Below, one piece after another: positions 1-59,574 of a stretch of 64,000 nt of DNA (position 1 is its first letter; the number at the start of each line of letters is the position of its first letter). The notes beneath the pieces are model-generated. The model made no database searches, had not been told where the DNA came from, and saw only the letters and a list, made by a program, of their open reading frames with translations. Source of the stretch: an uncultured Nitrososphaerota archaeon (GTDB lineage Archaea; Thermoproteota; Nitrososphaeria; Nitrososphaerales; Nitrosopumilaceae). A program made the translations under genes and the position numbers. The stretch spans positions 576,001 to 640,000 of the forward strand of contig CAWGPD010000004.1 in assembly GCA_963824385.1 (NCBI GenBank), given 5' to 3'.

Positions 1-2207
1 GATTTGCTTAAGACAATAGCGTCTTCAATGTTATAACCATCAAATGGTAATACTGCAACAACACAATTCTGACCAGCAGGTCTATCCTCAAGTCCTAGAA
101 GACCCATTGCTTTTGTATTAACAATTGGAGTCTGCGGATAAAGCATAAGGTGTTGTCTGACATATGTACTTGCATTCATAAGAGGAGTTGAGAAACCGAG
201 GCTTTGTTTTGCCATTGCTGACTCGTATGTATTTCTTGGGGACTGATTATGTTCAGGATATGGAATTATTGATGCACCAGCACCCAAAATTGCAGATGGG
301 AAAACTTCCATGTGAGTGTGTTTCTTGATATCAGTCTCATCAATTGCAATGTAAGAGTTCTCTTCTTCATTAGCATCTACCAATTCAATTATTCCCATAT
401 GCAGCAAATCTGTCCATGAAAGGAATTTTTTACTAACTTTATCAATTAATTCTTGTGTCAAGAGAATTTTATTATCTTTAATTACAATTAGGGGACGGAG
501 TACTCTTCCAGCATTACAGTTAACATAGAGCCTTTTAGTTGATCCCTCAAAACTAGATTGATATAAGAAAATTCCAACGTGTGGATGAATCTTGAAATTT
601 CTTCGGAGATCTCGTAACGAGTCAACAAGTTTTTGTCCATCTTTAAAGTATCCAATTAATCTACCATCAACAAAAACTCTAGTTCCTTCTTTTTTCAATT
701 CATCTTTTGCATCAGATACATAAGTTACGCCCAAGTCATAGAGTTTTTCAATTATATCTTCAGATGGAACGTTAACAGAAATAATTGCTGATAAAGCCAA
801 GTTCTTTACTAGTCCACAATTTGAACCCTCAGGAGTTTCACTTGGGCATATTCTACCAAAGTGTGTAGCATGAAGATCTCTTGCTTCAAAGTTAGGTTGG
901 CTTCTGCTCAAAGGTGACTGGATTCTTCTAAGATGACTAATAGTTGAAAGATAGTTAGTTCTATCAAGAAGCTGAGTTACACCAACTCTACCTCTGCCCC
1001 AATTTCCAGTTGCAATAGCATTATTCATTTTATCAGTAACAATTCCAGGTCTAACAGCAGCTGCTACTGCATTAATGCCCCTCTTCTGACCTGAACGTTC
1101 TAGTTGATATTTCATGTCACGAACCAAGTTTCTAAATGCTGTTCTAAAAAGATCAGCAAGCATTTGACCCGCAAATTTTATGACTTTATTTCCATAATGA
1201 TCTTTATCGTCAGGGGAAATCCAGCCCAACTTTAATTCAATTAATTTACAAGTGGCTTCACCAAGAAAGAGTGCTTTTTCTTTTCTATTATCTGGATGTT
1301 TACCAAGATGTGGAAGAAGACCCCAATCAAGTAATGTCTCAGCTCTCTTGATCTGAAACTCTTCAAGCATACCAGGTGCAATTCTCTTACTAATGTAGAC
1401 AATAGCATCTTTTGCAGTTGGTACATCACCTGATTTTTCAAATGAGCCCTCAAGCTCATCTTGAATATCATCTACTAGAGATACAGAAGCAGCGATTTCT
1501 CTATCAGATTCAAGACCTAATGCTCGCATTAAAGTAACCACGGGAATATCAACAGGGGAACCAGGAATCTTTGCAACAATAAGACCGTCATTTTTCATTA
1601 TCAATTCTAATTTTGCACGATAGCCAACTATAGAAGAATAAACCTTAGCTTTGAAAACAGTATTACCACCAACAGTTTCTTTATCTACAATAATTTTATT
1701 GTAAGAAAGATCTTCGAGTCCTACAATAACTCTCTCTGAACCATTTATGATAAAGTAACCGCCAGGATCGTTTGGATCTTCACCATGTTCTACAAGTTTT
1801 TGTTCAGAAAGATTATGCAATATACAAGCGTTAGATCTTACCATTACTGGCATGTCTCCAATGTGAATGTATCTTGATTCGAGAATTTTTCCATCTTCTA
1901 CAACACTTGCTTCAAGCATTATAGGTGAAGCATATGTGACATTTCTTAATCGTGCTTCCATTGGCGCAATATGAGTAATTGATCCATCCAATTCCATCAT
2001 ACGTGGTTGTTGAAGTTTTACTTTGCCAAGCTGAATTTTATATGGATATTCAGCACTTTCAATTTCAATATGTCCGACTTCATCTATAATACTTTGAAGT
2101 CCTCTCTCAAGAAATTCATCATATGAGTTAAGATGTTGTCTTGCAATTCCTTCTCGCTTTAAAATATCTTGAACAATAGGCCAGCGTTTATTTGAAATAT
2201 TTACCAT
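1..2207 (-). CDS. rpoB: DNA-directed RNA polymerase subunit B (Rpo2), 5' part; runs off the window start
   Basis: Manual translation from ATG at 2207: MVNISNKRWPIVQDILKREGIARQHLNSYDEF...GGYFIINGSERV...DDKDHYGNK...GRICPSETPEGSNCGLVKNLAL. Start overlaps the rpoH stop (TAATG). Missing from the ORF track, presumably because no stop lies in the window. Confidence 0.97.
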   Translation of the reverse strand, partial: MVNISNKRWPIVQDILKREGIARQHLNSYDEFLERGLQSIIDEVGHIEIESAEYPYKIQLGKVKLQQPRMMELDGSITHIAPMEARLRNVTYASPIMLEASVVEDGKILESRYIHIGDMPVMVRSNACILHNLSEQKLVEHGEDPNDPGGYFIINGSERVIVGLEDLSYNKIIVDKETVGGNTVFKAKVYSSIVGYRAKLELIMKNDGLIVAKIPGSPVDIPVVTLMRALGLESDREIAASVSLVDDIQDELEGSFEKSGDVPTAKDAIVYISKRIAPGMLEEFQIKRAETLLDWGLLPHLGKHPDNRKEKALFLGEATCKLIELKLGWISPDDKDHYGNKVIKFAGQMLADLFRTAFRNLVRDMKYQLERSGQKRGINAVAAAVRPGIVTDKMNNAIATGNWGRGRVGVTQLLDRTNYLSTISHLRRIQSPLSRSQPNFEARDLHATHFGRICPSETPEGSNCGLVKNLALSAIISVNVPSEDIIEKLYDLGVTYVSDAKDELKKEGTRVFVDGRLIGYFKDGQKLVDSLRDLRRNFKIHPHVGIFLYQSSFEGSTKRLYVNCNAGRVLRPLIVIKDNKILLTQELIDKVSKKFLSWTDLLHMGIIELVDANEEENSYIAIDETDIKKHTHMEVFPSAILGAGASIIPYPEHNQSPRNTYESAMAKQSLGFSTPLMNASTYVRQHLMLYPQTPIVNTKAMGLLGLEDRPAGQNCVVAVLPFDGYNIEDAIVLSK

Positions 2208-2458
2208 TATTCTTCCACCACGTACCTATAGTATATGCTCTCACCAGCAGTAGGACTCTTTCTTGTAATCTTTATCATATCACCGGGTTTTACTCCCAAA
2301 CCCCTAATTGCTGGATCACTTACGTAAATTAGCGGCATTTCAGTAGGTTTGGTATGATATCTTTCAAGAACTTTCATTGCTTCGTCTTTATTGATTATCT
2401 CATGTTTTGGGACATAGATATGATCTGGAATTAGTATTTTCTCTTTTTTACTTATCAT
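2207..2458 (-). CDS. rpoH: RNA polymerase subunit H (Rpo5)
   Basis: HIYVPKHEII...PLIYVSDPAIRGLGVKPGDMIKITRKSPTAGESIYYRYV; directly upstream of rpoB. Confidence 0.97.
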   Translation of the reverse strand: MISKKEKILIPDHIYVPKHEIINKDEAMKVLERYHTKPTEMPLIYVSDPAIRGLGVKPGDMIKITRKSPTAGESIYYRYVVEE

Positions 2459-2629: not shown

Positions 2630-3529
2630 ATGAGTACACGCTTTAAAGGATTTGCGCTACTTGCGATTCTGCTTTGTGCTGTAGGAGTAATGCCCGTTTT
2701 TGCTTCTCCAGCTCTTATGGCGTATCCAAATGGTGTTATTCCAAATTCTACAAATGCTGGTAATACATCTGGAATTATAACAAGTCCTACATCAACATCT
2801 GCAATCAGTGTAACAACTGACAAGACTTCATACAATGATGGTGATATAATTACAGTGTCAGGAAGTACAATGAACTACATTGATCAACCGGTAGAAATCA
2901 TTGTCAAAAGTCCAATAGGAAACATTGTAAAAGTAGATCAGCTAACATTGGGATCTGATAGAACATTTTCAACAACGTTGAAAGCTACAGGATCTCTCTG
3001 GTCAGCAGCAGGAGTATACACAGTGATGGCATATTTTGGCTCTACTGACACAGCTCAGACAACCTTCCAATTCGCAGGTTCTTCTGCAACTCCACCAACA
3101 CAGGCTCCAACTACTATGCCAGTTGACAATACACAACTTTCTGTACAGTATAGTATAACCAATGGCAAAGTGACTGACATAAAGGCTGACGTACAGTCAA
3201 AGTCGATCATTGTATCAATACAGAGCACTGGGGACGGAGTATTAACCATAACACTCCCAAGAGCACTTATTGATTCACAAAATGGCGGACAAGATGCCCA
3301 ATGGGTGGTATTAAACGACGGTCAACAAAGTACATACACTGAGACAACCACGCCAACCGCTAGAACTCTAACAATTCCATTCGTAAATGGAACTTCAGAA
3401 ATAGAGATAATCGGTACACAGATAATTCCAGAGTTTGGACCAATCGCAGCTCTAGTACTTGCAATTGCAATCATATCAATAATTGCAGTTTCGTCAAAGA
3501 CTGGACTAAGATTTATGCCAAAATACTAG
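2630..3529 (+). CDS. PEFG-CTERM surface protein 1
   Basis: Signal peptide, Ser/Thr-rich beta domains (VTTDKTSYNDGD...; LTITLPRALID), C-terminal PEFG + TM helix + KTGLRFMPKY. Confidence 0.92.
   Translation: MSTRFKGFALLAILLCAVGVMPVFASPALMAYPNGVIPNSTNAGNTSGIITSPTSTSAISVTTDKTSYNDGDIITVSGSTMNYIDQPVEIIVKSPIGNIVKVDQLTLGSDRTFSTTLKATGSLWSAAGVYTVMAYFGSTDTAQTTFQFAGSSATPPTQAPTTMPVDNTQLSVQYSITNGKVTDIKADVQSKSIIVSIQSTGDGVLTITLPRALIDSQNGGQDAQWVVLNDGQQSTYTETTTPTARTLTIPFVNGTSEIEIIGTQIIPEFGPIAALVLAIAIISIIAVSSKTGLRFMPKY
3428..3529 (+). repeat. 102-bp PEFG-CTERM cassette, copy 1 of 6 (others: 4469-4570, 5539-5640, 6987-7088, 7889-7990, 8982-9083)
   Basis: ccagagtttggaccaatcgcagctctagtacttgcaattgcaatcatatcaataattgcagtttc(gt/ag)caaagactggactaagatttatgccaaaatactag. 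Copies 1, 2, 3 and 5 are identical; copies 4 and 6 share a 2-nt variant. Confidence 0.97.
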
Positions 3530-3552
3530 AACCCTCTACTTTTTCATTTTTC
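3530..3552 (+). terminator. Putative oligo-T terminator/3' tail shared by PEFG genes 1-4
   Basis: aaccctctacttt(tt)catt follows the stop codons at 3529, 4570, 5640 and 7088. Confidence 0.5.
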
Positions 3553-3670
3553 AACTATTTTGACTTCAAACTTCTGTAGTTCATCAAATACCTCTAGACA
3601 AAACAATAGATTCAGTACTCAATTAAATTTCCATAAAACTGATAAATATGCGAAAACAAAGATAAATTTG

Positions 3671-4570
3671 TTGAATAAAAGATTAGGCGGATTTGTATTA
3701 TTAGTAATTATATCAAGTGCAGTAGGCATCGGTCCCGTTTTTGCGTCTCCAGCTCTTATGGCGTATCCAAATGGTGTTATTCCAAATTCTACAAATGCTG
3801 GTAATACATCTGGAATTATAACAAGTCCTACATCAACATCTGCAATCAGTGTAACAACTGACAAGACTTCATACAATGATGGTGATACAGTTAAAGTGTC
3901 AGGAAGTACAATGAATTACATTTCTGATCAACCGGTCACTCTCATCATCAAAAGTCCAATAGGAAACATTGTAAGTTTGGCCCAAGTACCTCTAGGTTCT
4001 GATAGAACGTATTCAACAACACTAAAAGCTTCAGGATCTCTCTGGTCAGCAGCAGGTGTATACACAGTCATGGTACAATTTGGCAGTAATGCTAATGCAG
4101 CTCAGACAACCTTCCAATTCGCAGGTTCTTCTGCAACTGCAACACAGGGTCCAACTATGTCAGTTGATGGCACATCACTTTCCGTACAGTATAGCATAAC
4201 CAACGGCAAAGTGACTGACATAAAGGCAAATGTACAATCAAAGTCTATTATTGTGTCGATGAATTCTACTGGGGACGGAGTATTAACCATAACACTCCCA
4301 AGAGCACTTATTGATTCACAAAATGGCGGACAAGATGCCCAATGGGTGGTATTAAACGACGGTCAACAAAGTACATACACTGAGACAACCACGCCAACCG
4401 CTAGAACTCTAACAATTCCATTCACATACGGAACTTCAGAAATAGAGATAATCGGTACACAGATAATTCCAGAGTTTGGACCAATCGCAGCTCTAGTACT
4501 TGCAATTGCAATCATATCAATAATTGCAGTTTCGTCAAAGACTGGACTAAGATTTATGCCAAAATACTAG
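3671..4570 (+). CDS. PEFG-CTERM surface protein 2, close paralogue of protein 1
   Basis: Same architecture. Likely start is TTG at 3671 (MNKRLGGFVLL..., aligning with the protein 1 signal peptide) rather than 3560. Confidence 0.9.
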   Translation: MNKRLGGFVLLVIISSAVGIGPVFASPALMAYPNGVIPNSTNAGNTSGIITSPTSTSAISVTTDKTSYNDGDTVKVSGSTMNYISDQPVTLIIKSPIGNIVSLAQVPLGSDRTYSTTLKASGSLWSAAGVYTVMVQFGSNANAAQTTFQFAGSSATATQGPTMSVDGTSLSVQYSITNGKVTDIKANVQSKSIIVSMNSTGDGVLTITLPRALIDSQNGGQDAQWVVLNDGQQSTYTETTTPTARTLTIPFTYGTSEIEIIGTQIIPEFGPIAALVLAIAIISIIAVSSKTGLRFMPKY

Positions 4571-4720
4571 AACCCTCTACTTTTTCATTAAGGCATTTCT
4601 TCAGAAGATTGTGGAATCAAGATTGAAGGTGATAATAAGTGTATGACCTTGATTTAAAATGCCAGTCAAAAATAAATGCATTAGATCATATTTTTATAAA
4701 AATTAAGTCTCAATTAACAA

Positions 4721-4876
4721 ATGGACGATGATACACTGGCTTATGTGACTATTGGATGTGGTGTACTTATTGCGATTGGTGGATTTTTTATGTTTTCATG
4801 TATGCTTTAGCTCAGTTAGGTTCTTTGGGTGTTAGGTATAGTCGTATCTATAATTGGTGCTTCTAAACTCTTTTAG
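4721..4876 (+). pseudogene. Possible small membrane protein, interrupted
   Basis: ATG 4721 MDDDTLAYVTIGCGVLIAIGGFFMFSCML*, then a second hydrophobic stretch in another frame (LGIVVSIIGASKLF*); sequencing error or decay. Confidence 0.3.
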
Positions 4877-5024
4877 TTCTTTTTTCAAACCCATATGATA
4901 ACCTGCTTAAGATTCCACCTACAAAAACAAGCATTTCATACAAAACCGAAAGCCAATCTGGGATTAATGATCTATGTCCCGACTGGTAACTTGGTCAAGT
5001 TCTGTCCCGAAAGGTACCAGAGTC

Positions 5025-5045
5025 TTTTTTAAATATACATAAATA
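5025..5045 (+). promoter_or_regulatory. Putative TATA-containing promoter, duplicated at 6151-6171
   Basis: ttttttaaatatacataaata ends 25 nt before the ATG of both PEFG genes 3 and 4, which fits leaderless archaeal transcription. Confidence 0.6.
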
Positions 5046-5070
5046 TCCATTCTGCTTAATCGCAAATAAG

Positions 5071-5640
5071 ATGAGTACTCATAAAGAATATGCGTTGATC
5101 GCAATTCTTGCTACAGCAGCTATAGTAGGTATAGTTCCGGCTTTTGCAATGGACAACCCCTACATGGCATGTCCGGACTGTAACGAAACCAGCAACATCC
5201 AACAGCCACAAAAAATACCAATGACAGTAACAACTGACAAACCAGTTTACGATCACAATTCACAAATTATGATCACTGGACATGTTGTAAACCCATTCCC
5301 AGGGCAAGATGTTAGTTTGGAGATAACCAGTCCGACTGGCAATATAGTAACAGTGGCTCAAGTAGCCCCTGATAGCAACGGTGATTTTACTACAACAGTA
5401 AGTACCGTTGGTAATCTATGGCTTGAGAACGGACAATACACAGTAGTAGCACAGCAAGGAGACCAACAAGCAAGAGTGAATTCAGCCGTATTCCAACTCA
5501 CAGGTGTAGCAGTAGGAACACCATCAGCACCAGTAATTCCAGAGTTTGGACCAATCGCAGCTCTAGTACTTGCAATTGCAATCATATCAATAATTGCAGT
5601 TTCGTCAAAGACTGGACTAAGATTTATGCCAAAATACTAG
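5071..5640 (+). CDS. PEFG-CTERM surface protein 3 (single domain, N-terminal CxxC)
   Basis: Signal peptide, MACPDC, one VTTDKPVY-type domain, PEFG-CTERM tail. Confidence 0.9.
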   Translation: MSTHKEYALIAILATAAIVGIVPAFAMDNPYMACPDCNETSNIQQPQKIPMTVTTDKPVYDHNSQIMITGHVVNPFPGQDVSLEITSPTGNIVTVAQVAPDSNGDFTTTVSTVGNLWLENGQYTVVAQQGDQQARVNSAVFQLTGVAVGTPSAPVIPEFGPIAALVLAIAIISIIAVSSKTGLRFMPKY

Positions 5641-6196
5641 AACCCTCTACTTTTTCATTTTTTAAGAAATTTTCAGTACATGAGAACATCAACAAAATTT
5701 AGATTGCAATTCAGAATGGCAATAACTAATACCACAATTCATAATCCAAGTATGCCATAGTTTGTAGAATCATAAAGCATGATAAATGCAATGTCATGTA
5801 TCATATATCATTTAAAAATAAATGAAAAGATGTCTCAGAATACACATGCATGTTGTAAAAAAAATATAATATATGAAGATCGGTTCATCGAAGTCAATTC
5901 TAAAACATATTGTATAGATTCAAGCACATCAATTACAACAAAATATGTTTTAGAATTTTCAAGTACAGTACGAGAACAAACTACAAGAAAATCACATAAT
6001 CAAAAATTATTTGCCATAGATCCAAATATAAAATCAAACCTCAGATGAAAAAAGGCTCATTTGAAAAGATGAGTTGTCACATTTCAAATTAACAAACTTG
6101 ATTCATATTAGATCGCCAAGATAACCAAGTCTCTACTAGATAACAGAATTTTTTTTAAATATACATAAATAGTCTTGCTTCTTAATCGCAAATAAG

Positions 6197-7088
6197 ATGA
6201 GTACTCATAAAGAATATGCGTTGATCGCAATTCTTGCTACAGCAGCTGATAATAGGCATTCTGCCAGCATTTGCTCAATCAGCAGCAGATTCAAGCCAAA
6301 TCAGCTCTGGTCCCGGGTCTCAACAAATCCTGCCAATCACAGTGTCAACAGACAAAGGTGTTTATGACAGACAGTCAACAGTAATTGTTACAGGACATGT
6401 CCTAAATGCAATAGGTGGAGAGACTGTCACAATGAAAGTTTCTGATCCATCAGGAAACGTTGTACAAGTAAATCAGATAACATTGAGCAGTAATGGCGAC
6501 TATGAAGCTAAAATCAACACTTCAAGTCCATTATGGTCTGCAGGTGGAACATACACCATTTATGTTCAAGCAGGAGCTCAACAAGGATTACTTTCAACAA
6601 CAACACAGTTTACAGTTTCTGGCGGAGTAGAGACGACATCAGCTACTAGTTGTACACCACAACAGCTTTCAATTACAGTAGATACCAATCTGTACTGTAT
6701 AGATTACAGTATTAATGGAGGAACTGTTTCTGGAATAACAGCGGACCACACATCTAAGAGTCTTGTTGTTGCAATACAAGCAACTAACGACGGCAACATC
6801 ACTCTTAACATTCCAAGATCCGTCTTAGATGCAAAAAGCGGTACAATGGACAGCTCCTTTGTAGTCCTACTTGATGGTGAACAAACATTGCAGTTTACAG
6901 ACTCACCTACTACAGACACAAGGAATATCACAATTCCATTCCATGCAGAATCTGAGAAGATTGAGATAATCGGTACACAGGTAGTTCCAGAGTTTGGACC
7001 AATCGCAGCTCTAGTACTTGCAATTGCAATCATATCAATAATTGCAGTTTCAGCAAAGACTGGACTAAGATTTATGCCAAAATACTAG
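6197..7088 (+). CDS. PEFG-CTERM surface protein 4 (+1 frameshift near 6248)
   Basis: ATG 6197 reads MSTHKEYALIAILATAA, identical to protein 3. An extra G at 6248 shifts into the ORF-track frame 6234..7088, which ends in PEFG-CTERM. Confidence 0.88.
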
Positions 7089-7156
7089 AACCCTCTACTT
7101 TCATTTTTTATCATCAACATAGTAAAGGAAATATACAACTAAAAGACAAGTCCGAT

Positions 7157-7990
7157 ATGCGTTATTTAGCAATTTTAATCATGTTGTTTTTCCTAAGTTC
7201 TGCACTATCAATTCCCATTTTGGCACAATCATCGGCTCCAGCAGCACCACTAATTACAATGAATACGGACAAATCATCATATACACTTGGTGATACAATT
7301 GTGATCTCAGGCGCTGTACAATCAGTAGTACCTGGAACTCCTTTAACTATTCAGATATTAGATCCAACAAACAGTCTTGTTCAAGTGGCACAGATTGATG
7401 TGTCACAAGATGGCAAGTATACAGATACTATCAAAGCTGTAGGAGTATTATGGAAAGTAAATGGAGCATATACAGTCAAGGTTCAATATGGCCCTTCAAA
7501 TGTATCCTCACAGGCTACATTTAATTTCCAAAGTTCAGTCACCCCTACAAGTAATGTATTTGCTCTCAAAGATCCCAACAGTCAACAAACTTTCAACGTA
7601 AATTACACCATAAGCGGAGGTACTGTTAAAACCATGACAATAGATACGCAGAGCCTATCGGTAATTGTATCAGTAAATTCCACCAGTGATGGAACCATTA
7701 CAGTACAACTACCAAGGACTTTGATTGATGCAAAGACAAATTCAGGTCAAGATGACGCATTCATAATACTCATAGATGGTGCTGAAGTAAAACCACAAAG
7801 CGAATCTTCAGATAATAATTTCAGAACCCTAACCATCCAGTTCTTACAAGGAGATCAAGATATAGAGATAATCGGTACACAGATAATTCCAGAGTTTGGA
7901 CCAATCGCAGCTCTAGTACTTGCAATTGCAATCATATCAATAATTGCAGTTTCGTCAAAGACTGGACTAAGATTTATGCCAAAATACTAG
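7157..7990 (+). CDS. PEFG-CTERM surface protein 5
   Basis: Signal peptide, two beta-rich domains, PEFG-CTERM tail. Confidence 0.92.
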   Translation: MRYLAILIMLFFLSSALSIPILAQSSAPAAPLITMNTDKSSYTLGDTIVISGAVQSVVPGTPLTIQILDPTNSLVQVAQIDVSQDGKYTDTIKAVGVLWKVNGAYTVKVQYGPSNVSSQATFNFQSSVTPTSNVFALKDPNSQQTFNVNYTISGGTVKTMTIDTQSLSVIVSVNSTSDGTITVQLPRTLIDAKTNSGQDDAFIILIDGAEVKPQSESSDNNFRTLTIQFLQGDQDIEIIGTQIIPEFGPIAALVLAIAIISIIAVSSKTGLRFMPKY

Positions 7991-8057
7991 AACTGAAAGT
8001 CAAATTTTTTTTTATCAATACATAAATACTCTAGATCCTGAGTATTTGCTAGCAGGC

Positions 8058-9083
8058 ATGAGAAGACAAAATATCTTTATTATATCATTATTAATCATAA
8101 CAGTGTTTTTGGCACCAATCGGTTTGCCAGCTTTTGGACAGAACGCAACAGTATCGCCGCCATCTAACGCAGGACCAGTAAATCCAAAGTTATTAGAAAA
8201 TACAACAACGGCTTACCAATACTTGCAAGCAGAAGCTAATGCAACTGGACTTTCAGATGTTAAAACACAGTTACAACCTTTGAATGTTACGACAAATTTA
8301 CCGACATATAACCAAGGGGATAAAATCGTCATGTCGGGTTATGTGAGAGACATACAGAATGGAACCGATGTATCAGTCATAGTTTTCAATCCAACAAAGA
8401 GCATGGTTTCAATAGGTCAATTACCAGTCACTTCAAGCGGTAGTTTTACTCAAACATTTCTAGCAACTGGACCACTTTGGACAACTGCAGGAACTTATAC
8501 TATATTAGCACAGTACGGACCTGACACAAATGTAACCAAGACATTCCAATATAGTGGCGGAACTGGAACAGCTACAATAGCACAATCAATCACTTCAACA
8601 TACAATTTACAATCAGGAAGTCAAAGTTATAGCATACCATATACCATCCAAGGAGCCACTGTTACTAGCATGAGTGTTTTGGCATCCACATACACATTAC
8701 AGATTAATCTAAGTCCTGCCACAGCAGCTGGTTCAATATCAGTCACCCTACCACGTGCGTTGATAGATGCAAAGACATTACCTCCGGTAAATCCTGATGC
8801 CAATTTAACAAAAGGAGTAGCAGCATCTACTGGTCCATTACCAGATACTAATTTCATAGTTACAATAGGTGGTAAGGCAGTTACACCGGCCAGCGATGTT
8901 AGGGGCCCAACTACCAGAACACTCAGTATTCCATTCAATGCAGGTGACAGTACAATTGACATTGTTGGAACAATAATAGTTCCAGAGTTTGGACCAATCG
9001 CAGCTCTAGTACTTGCAATTGCAATCATATCAATAATTGCAGTTTCAGCAAAGACTGGACTAAGATTTATGCCAAAATACTAG
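8058..9083 (+). CDS. PEFG-CTERM surface protein 6
   Basis: Signal peptide from ATG 8058 (ORF track starts at TTG 8046), two domains with insertions, PEFG-CTERM tail. Confidence 0.9.
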   Translation: MRRQNIFIISLLIITVFLAPIGLPAFGQNATVSPPSNAGPVNPKLLENTTTAYQYLQAEANATGLSDVKTQLQPLNVTTNLPTYNQGDKIVMSGYVRDIQNGTDVSVIVFNPTKSMVSIGQLPVTSSGSFTQTFLATGPLWTTAGTYTILAQYGPDTNVTKTFQYSGGTGTATIAQSITSTYNLQSGSQSYSIPYTIQGATVTSMSVLASTYTLQINLSPATAAGSISVTLPRALIDAKTLPPVNPDANLTKGVAASTGPLPDTNFIVTIGGKAVTPASDVRGPTTRTLSIPFNAGDSTIDIVGTIIVPEFGPIAALVLAIAIISIIAVSAKTGLRFMPKY

Positions 9084-11935: not shown

Positions 11936-12705
11936 TTTTTTTCGTACACTTCTATTTGCTATATTAGTGCAAATGCTCCTGCACCAATACCATTATCAAT
12001 ATTGACAACGGAAAGTCCCAATGTACAACTTTGCAACATAGATGCCAATGCTGCTACTCCTTTTGCCCCATAACCATATCCAACTGATGATGGCACTCCA
12101 ATAACAGGTATGTCTACTAGTGATGAGATTATGGATGCAAGTGCACCTTCCATTCCAGCAACTACTATAATTGCATCCACATCATGATGTACCATTTTTT
12201 TAACTATAGGAAACAGTCTATGAATTCCAGCTATGCCAACATCATAACTACAGACACATTGACATCCCATCACTTCACACATCAGTCTTGCTTCTTCTGC
12301 AACCCCAACATCCGAAGTTCCAGCTGTCAATATTCCAACCTTTCCTCCCGTAGAAGACAATTTTTTGAAGAAAAGTATAGTGGTGGTATTTTTCCCTGTC
12401 TGTATTTTCATTTTATTCTTTCTAGAAAAAGTCAGCATTTGCTTGTAATGATCCTTGTTGATTCTTGAGACAAGAACAGAATCTGCTTTAGATGTTGTTG
12501 CAAGAATTATTTTCTTAAGATCCAAAAATTCTTTTTTTTCAGCAAATATAACCTCGGGTATTCCTCTGCGTAACTTTCTACTCATATCGATCTTGGCAAA
12601 ATCTTCTATTTTCTCTATAGAGTATAGAGAAAGCAATTTCTTGGCTTTTGGTACACTTATCTTTCCTAGATCAAGCGATTCTAATATTTCAGTAAGATCC
12701 AACAC
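11906..12705 (-). CDS. larB: Nickel-pincer nucleotide biosynthesis protein LarB; C-terminal frameshift near 11968
   Basis: RRGIPEVIFAE, TAGTSDVGVAEEA, DVGIAGIHRL, VAGMEGAL, PSSVGYG, VVNIDNGIGA. Restoring one base gives ...GAFAANIANRS... ending at 11906. Confidence 0.92.
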
Positions 12706-12737
12706 TATTTGTAATTATGATACAGTTAAAAATTTAA

Positions 12738-13652
12738 TCAGAGCCCAAGATTTGAGATGGCACCTTTGACGCTCTCTACTCCCTTTTTGAACCACTCTTT
12801 TTCATTTGAATCCAGATCCAATTCTATTATTTTCTCAACACCATTTTTACTTATAACTGCTGGAACACCAATAGTGACATCAGAGTAACCATATTCTCCA
12901 TCAAGATACGTTGCCACAGGAATAACCTGTCTTGTGTTTTTCAATACGGCCTCTATGATTGTAGATATTGCATTTCCCGGGGCATGAACTGTTGCACCCT
13001 TTAGTTCTATTACCTTTGCTGCAACTTGCCTTGTACCCTGTACAATTTCTTCGATCTTTTCCTTTGATAAAATTGAAGAGAGGGGTATTCCAGATATAGT
13101 AGAAAATCTCGGAAGGGGTAACATGTTTTCACCATGTTCGCCCACTACAAGTGCACGTATAGAATTTCTCGAGTAACCAGTAGATTCATGTATGAATTGT
13201 GTAAATCGGGACAAATCAAGCATGCCACCCATTCCAAATATCCTATTTCTTTGAAAGCCTGAGACTTTGTATGTGAGGTATGCCATTGGATCTAATGGAT
13301 TAGTTACTGGAACAATCATTGCATCTTTAGCATATTTTTGTATATTTTCTACAACACCTTTTACTATTGACGCATTTATTTTTAGAAGATCCATTCTTGT
13401 CATCCCAGGTTTTCTACCAGAACCAGCAACAACAACTACAATGTCAGAGCCCTTCATTTCAGAATAATCATTAGAACCTCTAACGTTTACATCAATTCCT
13501 TTTTCTGCCAACATGTGATTTATGTCCATAGCCTCTCCTTGTGGAAGACCCTGAACAACATCCAATAGCAATATTTCATCTGTAACTTTTCTAAGAGCTG
13601 TAAATAATGCAGCTGCTCCACCCACTTTTCCCGAGCCAATAATTGTAATCAT
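12738..13652 (-). CDS. mdh: Malate dehydrogenase (LDH-like)
   Basis: [35 protein letters not shown]. Confidence 0.93.
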
Positions 13653-13768
13653 AAAATGCCCTCCATGTAATCTCTAATTAAACTTGACTGTCTTTTATCA
13701 AAATTTCGGATATAGTATTTCTTCAACTAAATTACAATTTATATGCATTCCAGTATGTTTAGAAAATC

Positions 13769-15001
13769 ATGGTGCTTGTAATTGATGCACAGATAGCTGG
13801 AATCTCTGGAGATATGTTACTTTCTTCGCTAGTCAGCATAGGTGCAAACAAGTCCAAGGTTATAGATGGCATATATTCAGTTGAAGAGTATCTCAAAGGT
13901 TCTAAAATTACAAAAGTAGATTTTGATAAAGTTATAAAACATGGAATAGAGGCAACGCATCTTGTTTTAGAGGTAAATGAAAATCATCACGAACGAAAAG
14001 GAATGGAAATTCAAGAATGCATATTGTCAACATCAGATAAGATAGGTTTATCTGAAAAAGCTAAAGTTTTTGCAAAGGAAAGCATTAGATCATTACTTCA
14101 TGCAGAATCAAAGATACATGGAGAACCTTTGGAATCAGTGCATTTTCACGAAGCATCAAGTATTGATACTGTCATAGATATAATTGGTTCAGCTATTGCA
14201 TTAGATGATCTAAAATTATTTTCAGAGCAAATTATTTCAACACCAGTGGCAGTGGGTGGTGGAACTTTAACTTTCTCTCATGGAACTACATCTAATCCTG
14301 CAAGTGCTATACTGGAAATATTCCGTGGTTCAGACACAATAATTTGTGGAGGACAGATCAGAGAGGAACTCACCACACCTACTGGTGCAAGCCTACTTGT
14401 GAATTTGTCAGATAGATGCTCAGAATTTTATCCAACAATGAAAATAAAATCAATAGGATATGGCGCTGGAAACAAGAATTTTGATGGTTTCTCCAATGTT
14501 TTGAAAATTGTTAGAGGAGAATCAACAGGTGAATTTCAGTTAGATACGGTACAAATTCTTGAAACAAACCTAGATGATGTTTCTGGCGAGACAATTGGAC
14601 ATATGATTGACAAGATAATTGCAAATGGTGCAAAAGATGTAACCGTAACAGGAGCTATAACAAAGAAGGGAAGACCGACCAATCTTGTTTCCATAATATG
14701 CGATCCATCTGTTACAAATAGCTTGATGAGTATACTCGTTTCAGAGACTGGAACTTTAGGCGTACGAGTAAGATCCTCTAGTCGATATATTGTTCCAAGA
14801 ATAACTGTCACAGTACCCATTCTCTTACAAGGAAAAAATTTCGCTGTGAGATGTAAGATTGTAAAACAGGATGAGATTGTAAAGCATTTCAAAGTTGAAT
14901 CAGACGATATCAAGTCAATCTCAGAGTCATTGTCATTACCATTTAAAGCGGCATCAGATTTGATATCAGATGAAGTCAAACGGAGACTAGACATAAAATG
15001 A
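13769..15001 (+). CDS. larC: Nickel insertase LarC (uninterrupted single ORF)
   Basis: AGISGDMLL, AESKIHG...VHFHE, ELTTPTGA, GYGAG, LETNLDD, KKGRP, ETGTLGVR. Confidence 0.95.
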   Translation: MVLVIDAQIAGISGDMLLSSLVSIGANKSKVIDGIYSVEEYLKGSKITKVDFDKVIKHGIEATHLVLEVNENHHERKGMEIQECILSTSDKIGLSEKAKVFAKESIRSLLHAESKIHGEPLESVHFHEASSIDTVIDIIGSAIALDDLKLFSEQIISTPVAVGGGTLTFSHGTTSNPASAILEIFRGSDTIICGGQIREELTTPTGASLLVNLSDRCSEFYPTMKIKSIGYGAGNKNFDGFSNVLKIVRGESTGEFQLDTVQILETNLDDVSGETIGHMIDKIIANGAKDVTVTGAITKKGRPTNLVSIICDPSVTNSLMSILVSETGTLGVRVRSSSRYIVPRITVTVPILLQGKNFAVRCKIVKQDEIVKHFKVESDDIKSISESLSLPFKAASDLISDEVKRRLDIK

Positions 15002-15798
15002 AACAGTTAGAAGAACTAATAAATTGGTTTGATACAAAAGAAAAAGTTCTGGTAGCTCTTTCGGGCGGAGTTGATAGTGCCCTTGTGGCATATGCTGCCC
15101 AAAAAGCTCTAGGTAAACAGGCTATTGCTGTAACAGCAGACTATAAGACACTCTCTCAGGAAGAGTTAGAATCTGCAAAGATAGTTTGTCAAGAAATAGG
15201 AATTAGACACATAATTATCGAATACAATGAACTGGATAATCCAGACTTTGTAAAAAATGATAAAAAAAGATGTTTTCATTGCAGAACTGAACTATCAGAA
15301 CATCTTCTCAGACTATCAAAAATAGAAAAAATTAGTCTCATCGTTGACGGAACTAACTTGGACGATCTTACAGAATATAGACCCGGAATTATAGCCCTAA
15401 AAGAAAATGGCATTCAAAGTCCACTAGTGGAATGTAGATTCAAAAAAGATGATGTTAGAAGAGTAGCAAGACAGATAGGTCTTTCAATTCATGACAAGCC
15501 ATCCAATTCTTGTTTAGCATCTCGCATTCCATGGGGAAATACAGTTACTGCTGAAAAGCTTGTAAGAATTGAGAAAAGTGAAATAATGATAAAACAACTT
15601 TTTGGGATAAGACAAGTAAGAGTTCGTGACTTTGGAAATAGTGCCAACATAGAAGTAGATAAAAATGAAATTGTTTTTCTCAGTGACAAAAAAAAGATGT
15701 CAGTGCTAAGAGAATATATGAATCAATTTGGATTTGATACAATCCTAGTTGATCCAAGTGGATATAGACCAGGAAGGCTCAACGTGATAACAGATTGA
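14998..15798 (+). CDS. larE: ATP-dependent sulfur transferase LarE
   Basis: PP-loop SGGVDS, RCFHC, DGTNLDD, YRPG, SCLASRIP. Confidence 0.94.
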   Translation: MKQLEELINWFDTKEKVLVALSGGVDSALVAYAAQKALGKQAIAVTADYKTLSQEELESAKIVCQEIGIRHIIIEYNELDNPDFVKNDKKRCFHCRTELSEHLLRLSKIEKISLIVDGTNLDDLTEYRPGIIALKENGIQSPLVECRFKKDDVRRVARQIGLSIHDKPSNSCLASRIPWGNTVTAEKLVRIEKSEIMIKQLFGIRQVRVRDFGNSANIEVDKNEIVFLSDKKKMSVLREYMNQFGFDTILVDPSGYRPGRLNVITD

Positions 15799-25189: not shown

Positions 25190-26950
25190 ATGTGTTCGAT
25201 TATAGGATATCTCGGTATCAGTGCTGCAGCCCCAATAATAGTCAAGGGACTAAAAAGGATGGAATATCGTGGCTATGATAGTGTAGGAGTTGCAACTTTT
25301 TCTGAGCATCAGATCAATGTACGAAAAGGAGTAGGCAAAGTCTTAGAAGTAAATAAAACAGTAAAGCTTGACGAACTTACTGGAACAATAGGAATAGGTC
25401 ATACACGTTGGGCTACCCATGGAATGGTAACTGATGCAAATGCGCACCCACATCCATCAAGTTCAGGAGAAATTGCTATCGTACATAATGGAATAATTGA
25501 AAATCATGAAGAATTAAAAAAAGAACTTCAAACACGAGGTTATACTTTTAAAAGTCAGACAGACAGTGAGGTGATTGCAAATCTTCTTCAATATAATTAT
25601 GACAAGACAAAAGAGATTAAAAAATCCATAGTAGATACATTATCTGAACTAAAAGGAAATTACGCTTTTGTAGCAGTGTTTCAGGATGGCACGTTAGCTG
25701 CAGTAGACTACACGAACCACTCATAATTGGAGTTGGAAAAGAAGGATATTTCATTTCAAGTGATGTATTAGGATTTGTAGAATATACTGATGAAGTGATT
25801 TATCCAGATAACAAAGAATTTGTTATCATTGATTCGTCAGGATTGAAGATCTTTGATTTTGATGCAAATCCAGTACAGCACCAAATAACTAAAGTATCAA
25901 AGGAATTTGCTGATGCATACAAGGGACAATATGCTCATTACACTTTGAAAGAGATTTCGGAACAGCCTACAACAATATTGAATGCTGGAAATAATACTAA
26001 AATTGAGATAGATTTAGCTTCTGATTTGATAAAACATGCAAGAAATTTGTACATTACTGGAAGCGGAACAAGCTATAACGCAGCGTTAATTGCAAAATTT
26101 CTCTTTTCAAAATATGCAAAGATAAAGATAGATCCATTAATTTCCAGTGAAGCACAATTTTCCCCGGACATATTTGAAGAGAAATCAATTCTAATTGCAA
26201 TATCTCAAAGTGGAGAAAGTGCAGATGTATTAGAGGCTGTAAACATTGCGAAAAAGACAGGATCTAAAATCATATCAATTGTCAACATGATGACATCTTC
26301 ACTAGTTCACCAATCGTCGATTTCAATTGGACTTAACTGCGGTCCAGAGATAGGAGTTGCAGCCACTAAAAGTTTTACGTCACAACTTGTAGTATTATAC
26401 AAAATGGTCGATAAAATATGTGATGGGTGTATAGAGTTAGATCTTCCAAAGGTATCAGAGGCAATAAAGAAGGTTCTTTCTAATGATTCCAAAATTAGAG
26501 ATGTTGCAAGGAGGCTAAAAGATGTTTCAGATATTTACGTATTAGGAAGAGGTGTTCACTATCCAATTGCCTCAGAAGGATCATTGAAGCTAAAGGAGCT
26601 TACATACATTCATGCGGAGGGACTTCCAGGTGGAGAATTAAAACATGGTCCATTAGCATTAATGGATTCAAATTCATATGTTTTAATCATCAATCCAAAT
26701 GATTCTACCTACAATGATACGTTAACATCAGCAAGAGAAATTAAAGCTAGAGGAGCAAAGATAATAGGAATTTCTGATAAGCCAAGTGATGTATATGATT
26801 ATTGGATAGATATTCCCACTATCACAGAGTCATTGTATCCTCTTGTAGAGATAGTACCAATACAGACTTCTTGCATATTATGCTGCACTTGAAAAAGATA
26901 CAGATCCTGATTATCCTAGAAACTTGGCAAAATCAGTAACAGTCAAGTGA
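25190..26950 (+). CDS. glmS: Glutamine-fructose-6-phosphate aminotransferase (frameshifts ~25705 and ~26866)
   Basis: N-terminal Cys (MCSII), EYRGYDS, GHTRWATHG, SQSGESAD, ELKHGP, and PRNLAKSVTVK* in the shifted frame. Confidence 0.95.
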
Positions 26951-36182: not shown

Positions 36183-37888
36183 TTGGATGATGAATTAAAA
36201 AGAGTAATTCGAGGAATTGCTCTTCTTAATGCATCCGAACATGATGGAAAGACTAGGAACGATTCAATCATTTCTAAAGTAATTGGTACTAAACCAGAAC
36301 TTCAATCAAGAATCAAGGATATCATTCCACTTATTTCACAAGAAGTAAATGATGTTAACAAATTATCATTAGAAACCCAAAAAGAGGAACTCGCAAAAAA
36401 ATATCCAGAATTACTCATAGTAAAACCGAAGCATGAGAGAGTAGGTCTTCCACTTCTTGAAGGAGCAGAACAAGGTAATGTAATTACACGTTTTCCTCCA
36501 GAACCCAACGGTTATCCACATATTGGACATGCAAAGGCATCGATAATTGATGAGGAGTACGCAAAAATGTATGGAGGTAAACTCATTTTGAGATTTGATG
36601 ATACGAATCCAGAGAAGGAACGTCTAGAGTACTATGCAGCAATCAAGGTTGGTCTTGATTGGCTTGGTGTAAAGTATGATCTTGTAAAAAATACATCTGA
36701 TGACATGGAAATAATTTACAAAAAGCTAGAGAGCTCATAGATTCTGGTGATGCATATGTTTGCACGTGTGACAAGGAAACAATTAGCAAGAATAGGAGAG
36801 AGATGTCATCCTGTAAGTGTAGAGCGGGAGATCTTAATCAAAATGTATCTCGTTGGAATAAAATGTTTGATAAGTTCAAACCAGGAGAAGCCATTGTTAG
36901 ATTTCGTGGGGATATGAAATCAGAGAATACAGTTATGCGAGATCCAACATTATTAAGAATAATAGATGAATCGCATCCAATCCACAAGGACAAGTATAGA
37001 GTTTGGCCAAACTATGATTTCGCAGTTTCTATTGAAGACAGTATTGATGGAATAACTCATGCATTTAGAACTAAAGAATATGAATTGCGAACTGAGCTCT
37101 ATAACACACTTTTAGACAAACTTGGTATGCGTAAACCAAAGATGATGGAGTTTTCCAGGTTAGAGTTTGAAGGAATGCCTGTTTCTAAAAGAGTACTAAA
37201 ACCTCTAGTAGAGGAGGGAAAAGTATCAGGATTTGATGATCCTAGACTTCCTACTCTTGAGGGATTACGTAGGAGAGGCATAGTTCCAGAAGCCATTAGG
37301 AAATTTGTTATTTCTCTTGGCTTTACTAAATCAGATACTTTACCACCATTTGAAACACTTGAATCATTTAATCGAAAGATAATAGACCCTTCAAGTGTAA
37401 GATTATTCATTGTTTTTGAACCAGTAAAATTAAAAGTTATTAACAACAATCTTACTGATATTGAGATTTCAAATCATCCACAAAATGATATGGGTAAAAG
37501 GAAAATTAAGATAGATGGAAATTTTTTCGTATCGGGTAATGATTCTAATACATTAAAAATCGGTGATGAGGTAAGATTGTTAGAATTATACAATATAAAA
37601 ATAACAAAAATAGGTTATGAAATAGAAGGAGAGATTACTAGTAGTAATTACAAATCAGATATTCCTAAAATTCAATGGATTCCAAGAAATAATCCAGTAA
37701 ACATAGAAGTCTTGATACCAAACATACTCTTCATAAATGACCAATTTAATGAAAATAGTCTTGAAGTTAAACAAGGTATTACAGAACAATACTACTTAGA
37801 GTTAAATGTGGGAGCAGAAATTCAATTCATGAGATTCGGATATTGCAGGAAAGATTCTGCGAATCAGGCGATATATACTCACAAGTGA
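36183..37888 (+). CDS. gltX: Glutamyl-tRNA synthetase (frameshift ~36725)
   Basis: RFPPEPNGYPHIGH, RFDDTNP, VSKR, DDPRLPT, QFMRFGY. Confidence 0.96.
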
Positions 37889-55319: not shown

Positions 55320-58300
55320 CTAACTTCTTTGTGAAATTTTTAATTTTTTCCAAGTAAAAATGGTTATTGTTGATGCTATTGCAATTCCTATCACAATTTC
55401 AATCAAAGTTGTAAAATTCTGATCGCTGTTATATTGACTTGAGGATGATGCGCCAAGACCGGAATTGTCTACGGTTAGTACAATATTTGCCATTTTTATA
55501 TTTCCTGCTCTGTCTTGTGCGACAGTCTCAATAATATAATTTCCATTGGCAAGAGACGTGGTATCAAATTGAATACTTTTAACATCGTGGAATGTCTGTT
55601 TAGGAGTTTTTACAGTCAACCAATCTTGTGGTGCAAGATTCAAATCATTTACATCCAAATCAATATTGACCACTCCGGAAACTACAGAATAATTCTTTGG
55701 TGATTGCAGTATAATTTCTGGCGGAGTATTGTCTACTACAAATTTGAATTCTTTAGATATACTATGCCCAACAGTATCGGTTATTACAAATTTAAGATCA
55801 TGTTCCCCTTCTGAAAGATTTCGAATATCATTTGTTAGTTTGTTTTGATCAATTATCTGTGCTGTCTCGTTGTCAAGATAGTATTCTTTATCTTCAATAC
55901 TCTGACCAATAATTTTTGGATTGATTACATAATTACTATTTATGAAAAGTGGAATGTCTAGAATCAATTGAGGAGATGATTCTATTGGCAAGAGTGTAGA
56001 GAATTCAGTATCAATTGTGATAGGTTCTGCAATTGATCTTCCACCAAATAATGGTGCATGTATCAATAATGAATAAACTCCAGTTTGGTTTAGAGAAGCA
56101 AATAATACAGTAGATGTTGCGTTTGTATTTTTTTCTGGATAAAATCCACCACCCTCACTAAAGGCTGGACTTGGTCCGAGCCAATCACCAGTTGGCCATC
56201 CTTGAAATTGTCCAAGTACACCAGGTGGACTATTTGTTTGAATAATTCTTCCTTGTGGGTCTATCAAAAATACAGATAGATTAGTATCAGGATCTTTCCA
56301 AGATAGATTCATGGCTACTGAATTAATTGTCTTGTCAGTGACATCAAAATAATATTGTCGCCAATCTCCAGCGTTGTATCTATTTGCCATGTCAAATCCG
56401 CCTCCAATGTAACCATTTCCATATAGTGCATCACCATTTTGTCCTTCTATTACAGTAGGCAAATCTTTTGGTTGTAGTTTTTTCATTACAGCATATGATA
56501 CTGGAACATTAACTGTATGCAAATCATCTTTAAAGTTGATAAAAGCTTGATACAGTCCAGGAGTCACATCTGAAGGAACAATTAGAGTAGCTATAACATT
56601 AGCTGTTCCATGAGGTTCGATCTGAACATTTTTTGAGTCTAACAATACATCGTTCCAAGGTATTTTTTTGTAATAGCTTGCAGTCAAAGTAAAATTAGAA
56701 GATGTTGAATTTTTCTTTGTGTCCCCAGTCCAATAGGAGTATCTAGTAGGCACTGGATAAACTCCAACTAATGGCGTGTGTTTTATCTGTGCTGCAGGTT
56801 CAGAAACTCTAAGTTCTTGCACAGTTCCCCATGCACCACCTCTATTGATTAAAGAGAGATCCTTTGAGGAAGGCACAGAACTATCATTTTTTTTATTCCA
56901 ATCATACAGATACAATGATGAAATCTTCATGTCATCAGCATATGTTTTTGCAGATGAATTCATGAATTGTGAGAACGGAGATGTCAAATCAAGGATCAAT
57001 AGAGAAGCATCGTCTGGAATAGATTTTGTTTTTTCAAAAGAAGATGTAAGGCTGGTATGATTTTCTATTTCTTGTAACGGAATGTAATTTGGTCTATACA
57101 CTCCTGGTTTTTTTATGAATGGATCCTGTAATCGTACTTGAGTTGTTCCATTATAAGTATCAAGTTTTATCAATTCAAGTTTTTGTGGTTGAATATCTAC
57201 TTCCAGAGTATGATTTGTTGGATTTACTATTGTAAAAGTAGCAGATGTGTTATCTCCTGGAAATAATCTACCTCCAAACCAAGATGTTTCAGGCAATGAG
57301 GAATTTGTAAATTCAATATTCTTCAAACCTACAGAAGATGAGTTCATTGTTTGCAATGCAGGTTCCAAGATTTTCTTTATGTTAGAATATGATGCATTAT
57401 TATAAACTTCAAAGACATCATCGTTTCCTAGTACAAAATTAATGGCTCTTGTTATATTTACCAATCCGGAGCCTTGTGAAAAAGGATCATTACCCAAATC
57501 AGTCGCAGTTGACATGAGAATATTTTTTATTGTAAAAGAATTGTAAGTGATGTTGTTATCTTTTAGACTCTCCATAAGAATAGCTGCAGAACCTGCCACT
57601 AGAGGTGCTGCCAAGCTTAGTTCCTCCAAACAGTCCATATTTACCAGTACTATTTTTACTAATTTGTGACACCGATGTAGGAGTATAGCTATACTCTCCT
57701 ACGGCCATTAGATCTGGTTTAGGATCTCCTATTAGAGATGGGCCTTTACTGGAAAAGCCAGATACCTCACCATAATGAGAAGTATTGTTACCAAATCTTG
57801 GCTGATTCTTGAATGGACCATAACCAACAAAAACATTGTCAGTCACTGCTCCCACCGTTATACCAAATGGTGCAGCATCAGGAGTTCCCATAGTTCCATA
57901 ACCAGGTCCTGCATTTCCAGCACTACTAACTGTCAATATTCCAGGATAATTTACATCAAGAGAATGAGGAACTGAAAGTGCGCCAAGTAAAAGTGATTGT
58001 ACATCAAGTCCTGGAACTGATTGAAGTGCAGGAAAAGTCGATATCCCCCAACTGTTTGACAATATATCCACTCTATGATTTCCTGTGTATTTCCATTGAT
58101 TTTTTTCTTGGTCAAATCCTGCTGCCCAGAGCCAACCGTAAATTGCATCACCTAACCAAAGTGCCTTAATTGGAACAATTTTTGCACCAGGAGCAACTCC
58201 CCTTATATGATATTTGATAGATGTACCATACACGTCATAACTTTCTTTTCCAGCTGATACAATAGAACCAGCAGTTCCTGTTCCATGGCCTCCAAAATCA

Positions 58301-59574
58301 TACATCACTCCAAAGAAATTTCCATGAGGATCAAGTGGAGGAAGAAGTGTACCGTTGATTGCCCCTAAATTTTTGTTAAGTAAAGACGGTTTTGCAATAA
58401 CTCCATATACATCCAAAACATGTGCTCCAACTGTTCCTGCACTATAGTCTGATTTTCCATTATGTTTTGAATCATACACAAGATACTCATTACCGCCACC
58501 TAAAGTAATGGGCTTTTCATTGGTAAAATCAAAATCATATTTTGGTAAAATAGGATTATCGAATTTTACAAAGTCTTTCCAAGAATCTGACATGTCTGCA
58601 ATTATAGTATCATACAAACCTGGAATGTTTGAGTCAACGACAAGAACTGGCACCGTTTGCAGTCTAAATAATTCACCATAAGAGATATTCTCATATATCA
58701 TACCAAAATGGTAAACACCACTTTTTGAAACAATAAAGTGTTTTGGATCTTTTCCTATCTTATAATCATCAAAGACAGTTCCATTTAAGATAGTATTACC
58801 ACCTTTTGGGTATAGAGAGTTATAGACTTGAACATATGTTCCCTTACCTTTTTTGTTCAGATCAAGAAATACTCCTTTTGAAGTAACATAAACAGAAGAT
58901 GCTACATTTTTTGGAATAGATTTGGTATAATTTTGCATTATTCCATGACTATCTATATTTGCAACAAATGTTGTATTTGTTAATACAATTCCTTGACCAT
59001 CTGCATCAATCATCACTGGAATGTTGTTCCCATCACGAGCTACAGAATTCTTCATATCAGGATTTGAAAAATCAGTCCCAGTATCCACTATTCCAATATT
59101 GATGCCATTTCCCGAATATCCATAACTTTGGAAAACTTTGTCAGAGCCTAGAATTTGATCAATTCTTGAAACTTCAGCTATTGGAAGATCAGGTTTTAGT
59201 GAGTCAAATTCTAATGGTAAATCCTCAATTACATCATATCCATTTAATTTTAAATTGGAGACTTGATCCTGATTAAAAAAACCCATGGCAAAAGATCCAT
59301 GACCCAAGTCTGCCCCATAAGTCACATGGCTGACTTGTGATATAATGTCTGTAACAGAACCAGAGCCAAAAACTATGTATCGTTTAATTGGATTTTGATC
59401 CACAGATGGTTGAAAGTTTATGAGATCTGAGACTTGATTTACAGTAACATCTGTTGTAATTTTTGGAAGATCTACATCGTATGAACCAATTGCCGATTTT
59501 GGAAAGAGAGAAAATAACAAAATACAAATCAAAAAAAACCCTGTTTTTGAAATGATGCTTTTGTTTTTTAGCAT
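55320..59574 (-). CDS. Large membrane-anchored S8 (subtilisin-like) serine protease (frameshift ~57617)
   Basis: IVDTG, GHGTGTAG, SAGNAG, KPDL; removing one A restores GGTSLAAP; C-terminal TM helix plus basic tail. Confidence 0.92.

Follow-up and report, generated by a model that had tools for sequence, protein, structure and literature searches.

Conserved sequence flanks the variable bodies of surface proteins in pilE/pilS, vls and the shufflons, as it does in the gene array described here. A likeness of another kind is found in mtrA-1/mtrA-2 of Methanococcales and Methanomicrobiales, neighbouring archaeal paralogues of ancient duplication that exhibit long-lasting conversion of one domain; as far as the accessible part of PMC4632066 goes, this pair is the closest precedent for the array. 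PEFG-CTERM proteins of marine ammonia-oxidizing archaea (AOA) are abundant or co-expressed with amo genes according to the available portions of PMC6593220 and 10.1101/175141, which may concern other loci than ours, and S-layer anchoring in Nitrosopumilus maritimus is described as unresolved in the part of PMC11153153 at hand. We analysed a window of 64,000 nucleotides (nt) from an uncultured Nitrososphaerota archaeon (GenBank assembly GCA_963824385.1, contig CAWGPD010000004.1, positions 576,001 to 640,000), in which six tandem genes (window positions 2630 to 9083) end in a nearly identical tail encoding a PEFG-CTERM sorting signal. The comparisons below suggest an old array of fixed gene order, coding for predicted membrane-anchored surface proteins with immunoglobulin (Ig)-like domains, the tails of which have quite probably been overwritten by ordinary recombination between neighbours.

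The six tails (102 nt; 33 codons and the stop codon) are located on the forward strand at positions 3428..3529 (copy 1), 4469..4570 (copy 2), 5539..5640 (copy 3), 6987..7088 (copy 4), 7889..7990 (copy 5) and 8982..9083 (copy 6). They differ only at positions 66-67 of the cassette, which confirms the two alleles reported in a first-pass annotation of this DNA: TCGTCA (SS) in copies 1, 2, 3 and 5, and TCAGCA (SA), the allele common in relatives, in copies 4 and 6. Pairs of copies remain identical beyond the tail for another 2-39 nt on the upstream side and 3-22 nt on the downstream side. The same annotation described the gene bodies as strongly different. This holds for most pairs (46-54% nucleotide identity, longest exact runs of at most 27 nt) but not for the first two genes, A1 and A2, which are 87% identical with an exact run of 156 nt. 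Nor are the bodies unrelated modules, A to E all being paralogues with one or two Ig-like domains and 31-42% amino acid identity. Many further PEF-type tails exist in the genome, all of them differing from the array tail. Since those tails differ and the bodies are so diverged, chance identity of the six tails is excluded.

At the DNA level, a search for the tail was positive in 24/24 genomes of the same genus (g1) and in 0/16 genomes of other families; the PEFG-CTERM domain is present in 32/32 genomes of the family, across which the array adjoins rpoH. The g1 tails exhibit 0.76 differences per 99 nt within a genome (105 pairs, 54 of them identical). Between genomes the mean is 5.82 for the same orthologue (425 pairs) and 5.78 for different orthologues (1681 pairs); G020, with diverged tails (mean 22.8), is excluded from these means. 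Thus the tails group by genome, and not by orthologue across strains. Over a set of 16 genomes, the tail itself gives a phi by genome of 0.73-0.96 (about 0.89), and the sequence beyond it, apart from a transition zone at -15..-1, a phi by orthologue of 0.27-0.76; the switch to orthologue grouping occurs more than 15 nt upstream of the tail and directly past the stop codon. Read from these alignments, the pattern is one of concerted evolution, long-lasting and restricted to one domain, and orthologue-specific conservation is ruled out. The recurrent gene conversion proposed in the first-pass annotation is supported by this grouping: tail identity is likely kept by repeated conversion, and not by a module-shuffling system. 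In other genera the array, again beside rpoH, has homogenised tails in A, B and C, and the D tail has escaped. The SS allele is present in only 5/95 g1 tails, four of them in this array amid SA copies, which marks it as a derived allele on the move between non-adjacent copies.

Conversion, as judged from sequence comparison, is not special to the array tail. Gene A1 (2630..3529, + strand), the orthologue of array position A, encodes a signal peptide, two Ig-like domains and PEFG-CTERM. Blocks of perfect identity between A1 and A2, on the + strand at 2705..2846 (about 142 nt) and 3227..3382 (156 nt), alternate with clearly diverged blocks. Such mosaic tracts with sharp borders are putative conversion tracts outside the anchor. 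A second PEFG array in the same genome, with another tail and dissimilar bodies, exhibits 0-4 differences between its tails within genomes (11 pairs) and 5.8 between genomes. This cluster (L149; contig C2, 80286-84663) consists of four genes, including those for proteins of 201 and 530 amino acids, beside a metal-ABC-type permease; two of the genes we take to encode cupredoxins from the look of a motif. Its tail is homogenised in G023, G002 and G018 as well. Dispersed array-type tails, including that of PstS, are 5-16 nt of 75 away from their own array and so are not kept identical; four matches came without an array of their own, and one further match (distance 0) is gene A of an array, situated where a contig ends. 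The PstS-like phosphate-binding gene of the present genome (contig C4, 435403-435499, - strand) carries an array-type tail with 88.7% identity. PstS-like genes of relatives have similar tails, and that of G013 is nearest to its own array.

A2 (3668..4570, + strand, with an inferred TTG start) is an extra copy found in this genome only, and a chimera. Its upstream region, including the promoter, and its signal peptide match a dispersed A-like paralogue (loci L147 and L148), and its body and tail match A. Of 15 diagnostic sites in codons 1-21, 13 agree with the dispersed paralogue, and they do so in A2 alone; at 22 diagnostic sites farther on, A1 and A2 alike agree with array orthologue A. The dispersed paralogue is present in 2/60 genus genomes. 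From these sites it appears that the array can gain a member, a case seen in 1/25 genus arrays with at least two tails. Import of the SS allele with the A2 donor is unsupported, since L148 carries SA and the SS of L147 is written with another codon pair. In G014, the L147 copy lies between three genes, presumably a DNA methyltransferase-like gene, an Mrr-N-like open reading frame (ORF) and a nuclease-like ORF, which suggests a mobile or defence island. Another shared segment is found in B and C, where a 5' module composed of a promoter-like region and the start of the signal peptide is 92% identical between 5012..5121 (B) and 6138..6247 (C), both on the + strand; in G015 a derived substitution is common to the two modules.

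For a survey of the family, 118 loci were examined, 23 with fewer than two tails were dropped, and an array was called homogenised if it contained a near-identical tail pair (at most 2 differences in 75 nt). Homogenised arrays number 64/82 below 50% guanine-plus-cytosine (GC) content and 0/13 at 50% or above. These counts are biased by 38 loci, the window's included, picked by tail similarity; the 80 loci picked by rpoH position only gave, by hand count, 30/47 (<50% GC) and 0/10. Two GC-rich genomes, G020 and G153, belong to genera homogenised in 24/25 and 14/15 arrays, respectively. GC content at third codon positions is mostly lower in the tails than in the bodies of GC-rich genomes. The paralogous tails of G258 exhibit no amino acid difference in 25 residues and 16/25 synonymous differences, hence protein-level selection acts without conversion. 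Mismatch-repair genes did not distinguish homogenising from non-homogenising genomes: MutS was found in 0/5 genomes (including G020, G153, G214 and G183), as was NucS (0/5, including G020).

The synonymous divergence of g1 tails is 0.148, against 0.40 expected from amino acid-matched codons of the bodies or flanking genes (55 non-independent pairs from 11 genomes). Relative to the rpoB expectation, the homogenised A, B and C tails of genus g19 stand at 0.36-0.41 and the escaped D tail at 1.35, a pattern also seen in g23 and g67. D and E belong to the homogenised set in g1, and there all five tails are at 0.37-0.40 (D at 0.40). It is new that synonymous divergence is down to about 0.4 of expectation in homogenised tails and is not so in the escaped tail of the same array; new as well are homogenisation by GC class, the A2 chimera and the second PEFG array that behaves alike. 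In the theory of Mano and Innan, as presented in the accessible part of PMC3924837, sites under purifying selection are slower under conversion and neutral sites are not.

These data can be accommodated as follows. Purifying selection on the anchor protein would keep the tails similar enough for recombination, and ordinary homologous recombination would then likely copy short tracts between neighbouring tails; no MutS or NucS that could block short-tract recombination was found in the five genomes searched for each. Conversion would equalise synonymous sites and spread new alleles, as with SS in 4/6 copies. The bodies, about 50% identical, would be too diverged to take part and would have escaped conversion. 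The approximately 2.5-fold slower synonymous change could arise if n linked copies strengthen weak codon selection, or if repair is biased to the majority allele. In GC-rich lineages mutation probably outran conversion and the tails escaped. Reverse transcriptase (PF00078) was found in 0/5 genomes (that of the array, G000, being 86% complete), and conversion mediated by complementary DNA was set aside for this reason.

Several observations weigh against this account. While the grouping by genome can be read off the tails directly, we infer the molecular steps, and conversion itself, from a comparison of contigs in which no event is directly observed. In a nearest-neighbour count over 70 tails, 37 were closest within their genome, 27 were ties and 6 were closer to the orthologue. 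The B/C 5' module exhibits 9.5 differences within and 10.1 between genomes, two of the pairs being inflated by a 1-nt offset. As to the synonymous rate, the pairs of genomes compared depend on one another. The tails of g65, 16-18 nt apart within genomes, are still slow (A 0.64 and C 0.36 of rpoB), position 2 of g18 is at 0.41 in an array that is not homogenised, and g21 (3 genomes) exhibits no slowdown (1.2-1.9). The escaped D tail is an imperfect control, being freer at the protein level too (0.32 versus 0.03-0.05). The GC link is weakened by arrays below 50% GC and yet not homogenised, in g65 (0/4), g18 (1/10), g62 and g66, and in the rpoB tree long branches lead to many of the GC-rich lineages.

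A role of the tail at the nucleotide level, raised in the first-pass annotation, would account for both the slow synonymous rate and the sharp tail edges. The tail would fold into a long hairpin, either at the 3' end of the mRNA or in single-stranded or cruciform DNA, be selected as such and perhaps promote recombination. The whole tail can indeed be drawn as one fold (nt 7-95; -22.8 and -26.2 kcal/mol, z of -2.5 and -3.2 against dinucleotide shuffles), and homogenised tails exhibit a mean z of -1.51 against synonymous resampling (28 tails, all negative) versus -0.19 for escaped ones (48 tails). However, those 28 tails share an ancestor, and the long structure was derived from one aligned sequence. 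With protein and codon usage kept, the tails of this genome reach only z -1.0 to -1.7, dispersed tails reach -2.5, and the second array is homogenised at only -0.7 to -1.7. Among 31 sequences the stem 40-47:52-59 is paired in 94% of cases and exceeds slid controls, and in 5 cells both partners have changed; yet preferred codons for an Ala-Ile...Ile-Ala sequence suffice to produce a stem of this kind, 13/31 sequences break pair 45:54, and 42:57 is often broken in GC-rich genera. Pair counts exceed shuffles, but compensatory changes are few, and related sequences can exceed shuffles without structure. The RNAalifold consensus is just -4.6 kcal/mol and there is no Rfam match. The slow g65 tails, not homogenised, fit the hairpin. 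We consider this explanation rather unlikely. The same holds for its fullest form, in which the tail would be dual-coded, a sorting signal whose codons keep a fold-back hairpin that promotes recombination or stabilises mRNA, and which would drive anchor copy correction across the family with the slowdown of about 2.5-fold, recruit new array genes and decay in GC-rich lineages.

Alternatively, identity of the tails might itself be selected, through co-assembly of the proteins via their transmembrane (TM) helices or a shared handling step, conversion being then favoured and not incidental. Paralogous tails of G258 and G214 differ by 0-1 amino acids despite 14-16 synonymous differences, and the A, B and C tails of g19 are far more conserved in protein than its D tails. 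Long-lasting concerted evolution in prokaryotes concerns mostly subunits of complexes (22/26 genes in the part of PMC6053082 available). Against this, one array may contain several non-synonymous variants (SS/SA in ours; L/F in G004, G014 and G015; M/I and P/A in G022), an almost identical tail is found on PstS and further unrelated proteins, and the homogenised gene set differs from genus to genus. We regard selection for identity as unlikely. A prediction of the C and D proteins in complex gave a best score of 0.19 (mark 0.32; controls were not folded), which speaks neither for nor against an interaction.

The first-pass annotation proposed a constant-anchor/variable-body system in which recombination through the cassette may shuffle or expand surface modules; the tails would then be crossover sites at which modules are shuffled, deleted or excised and the cell surface varied. 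Gene order gives this idea no support, and we judge it very improbable. In g1 the order is A-B-C-D-E, A being absent in some genomes, and 89/92 classifiable junctions are canonical, the bodies being stable orthologues; the order A-(B)-C-D is kept in other genera. Of the non-canonical junctions, one in G005 (C>E) and one in G016 (D>B) have their breakpoint precisely within the tail, as crossover there would predict; however, both assemblies are fragmented (70 and 250 contigs), and a 100-nt repeat invites misjoins. The third, A>A, is the extra A copy of this genome, and the A2 breakpoint, the sole sign of modular exchange, lies at the signal peptide and not at the anchor. Spacers 3' of tails often contain inserted DNA (25/245 junctions exceed 350 nt), but a crossover in a 3' tail cannot create new bodies. 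No joint inside tails was seen in the short-read or RNA-library contigs examined; the joints observed can be put down to relatives, to the repeat shared by A1 and A2 or to the 5' repeat of B and C. Nor did we see silent cassettes: all six array genes are full ORFs with a signal peptide, allowing for an assembly error in copy 4. Tyrosine recombinase (PF00589) was found in 0/1 genome (G000, 86% complete; serine recombinases were not searched), and reverse transcriptase is not found either. The lack of any PF00589 match is unusual for an archaeon and may reflect the completeness of G000.

Short-read contigs from three studies match the array at 99% or more, with ends that fall at the tail edges; one of the runs may be the source sample. 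The sole variant contig inside a tail agrees with the dispersed PstS copy in its flank and in its alleles. In copy 4 the apparent frameshift near 6248 was introduced by the assembly: of four short-read runs, the three that cover the site lack the extra base. An origin of the tail identity in assembly or polishing of collapsed repeats, which the first-pass annotation had envisaged, is thus largely refuted and extremely improbable, for, although the assembly carries indel errors (6248, 5891), two alleles coexist in the array, the short-read contigs agree, 24/25 g1 arrays exhibit the pattern with genome-specific alleles, the complete single-contig relatives G014 and G150 among them, and the diverged tails of G020 were reported by the same pipeline.

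The remaining array genes, all on the + strand, are B (5071..5640; signal peptide, one Ig-like domain and PEFG-CTERM), C (6197..7088; the real start being the ATG at 6197), D (7157..7990) and E (8058..9083). The divergently transcribed gene at 2207..2458 (- strand), presumably rpoH, is the conserved flank that served to find the array in relatives. All six proteins pass the PEFG-CTERM profile TIGR04296 (30.8-35.8 bits, cut-off 25). As the first-pass annotation noted, no sortase gene lies in the window; a thaumarchaeosortase (TIGR04297, 415 bits, cut-off 250) is encoded at locus L043 on contig C1, another contig than that of the array. The predicted model of D (mean predicted local distance difference test score 91) comprises an N-terminal helix, two beta-sandwich domains and a TM helix (249-268). 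Its domain 1 resembles the Haloferax volcanii S-layer protein (7ptp: Z 12.3, root-mean-square deviation 2.0, 91 aligned; 8qox_B: Z 10.8) and is equally near macroglobulin (MG)/complement MG domains (Z 12.8), thus Ig/MG2-like; Foldseek against the PDB returned generic Ig folds only. Orthologues of D are deposited as PEFG-CTERM proteins under Nitrosotalea names, and on this ground g1 is assigned to Nitrosotalea. RNA-library contigs cover the array ORFs, some pieces exactly; level and strand are not readable from contigs.

Some further features of the window may be mentioned. Spacers are long at 4571-5070 and 5641-6196, as they are in G022, G177, G283 and G214, and several long spacers carry transposase-like or foreign ORFs inserted directly past a T-rich, terminator-like run. 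The A2-B spacer contains a hydrophobic ORF of 29 amino acids (4721-4810, + strand, starting MDDDT), with similar DNA on contig C1 and in loci of G022 and G174. A contig of run X5 joins spacer 5750-5858 to its own opposite strand, which may stem from a related strain that has an inverted repeat or a small inversion there. Genes like larB, larC and larE surround mdh at 11959-15798. Split ORFs at 25190-26892 (glmS-like), 36183-37888 (GluRS-like) and 55320-59574 (subtilase-like) are likely due to assembly indel errors.

The strong protein conservation of the A, B and C tails, even without conversion, makes these rpoH-linked proteins candidates for a core envelope role such as S-layer tethering, a guess from the fold and from the abundance of PEFG proteins in marine AOA. 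The array also constitutes a clean natural experiment on archaeal concerted evolution: converted and escaped members stand in one array, lineages occur with and without homogenisation, and one allele is observed while still spreading. Whether, as predicted, weakly selected sites evolve more slowly under conversion thereby becomes testable inside one gene family. On the practical side, repeats of 100 nt break or misjoin short-read assemblies and mislead whole-gene trees.

We found no description of homogenised PEFG-CTERM tails in the literature searched, which comprised mostly listed matches and no subscription papers; the words "identical", "conversion" and "shuffl" are absent from PMC1569441 on PEP-CTERM. 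The six proteins are like the described PEFG-CTERM proteins in exceeding the TIGR04296 cut-off in a genome with TIGR04297, their processing being predicted only, and nucleotide homogenisation of tails goes unmentioned in the accessible portions of PMC6593220 and 10.1101/175141. Unlike pilE/pilS, vls and the shufflons, the array has no silent cassettes seen and no recombinase found, its order is fixed and its bodies are stable orthologues; we do not see in it a new system of surface variation. Genes of the plastid inverted repeat, according to the part of PMC5010901 available, also exhibit a 2-3-fold lower substitution rate in copy-corrected DNA; here, by contrast, the corrected DNA is a 100-nt gene segment in direct tandem repeats, with no rise in GC. 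In mtrA-1/mtrA-2, as far as PMC4632066 could be consulted, homogenisation affects the catalytic domain and the TM domains are different, whereas in the present array it is the TM sorting tail that is homogenised. Here, moreover, 3-6 genes with differing bodies are involved, and lineage-specific escape is seen.

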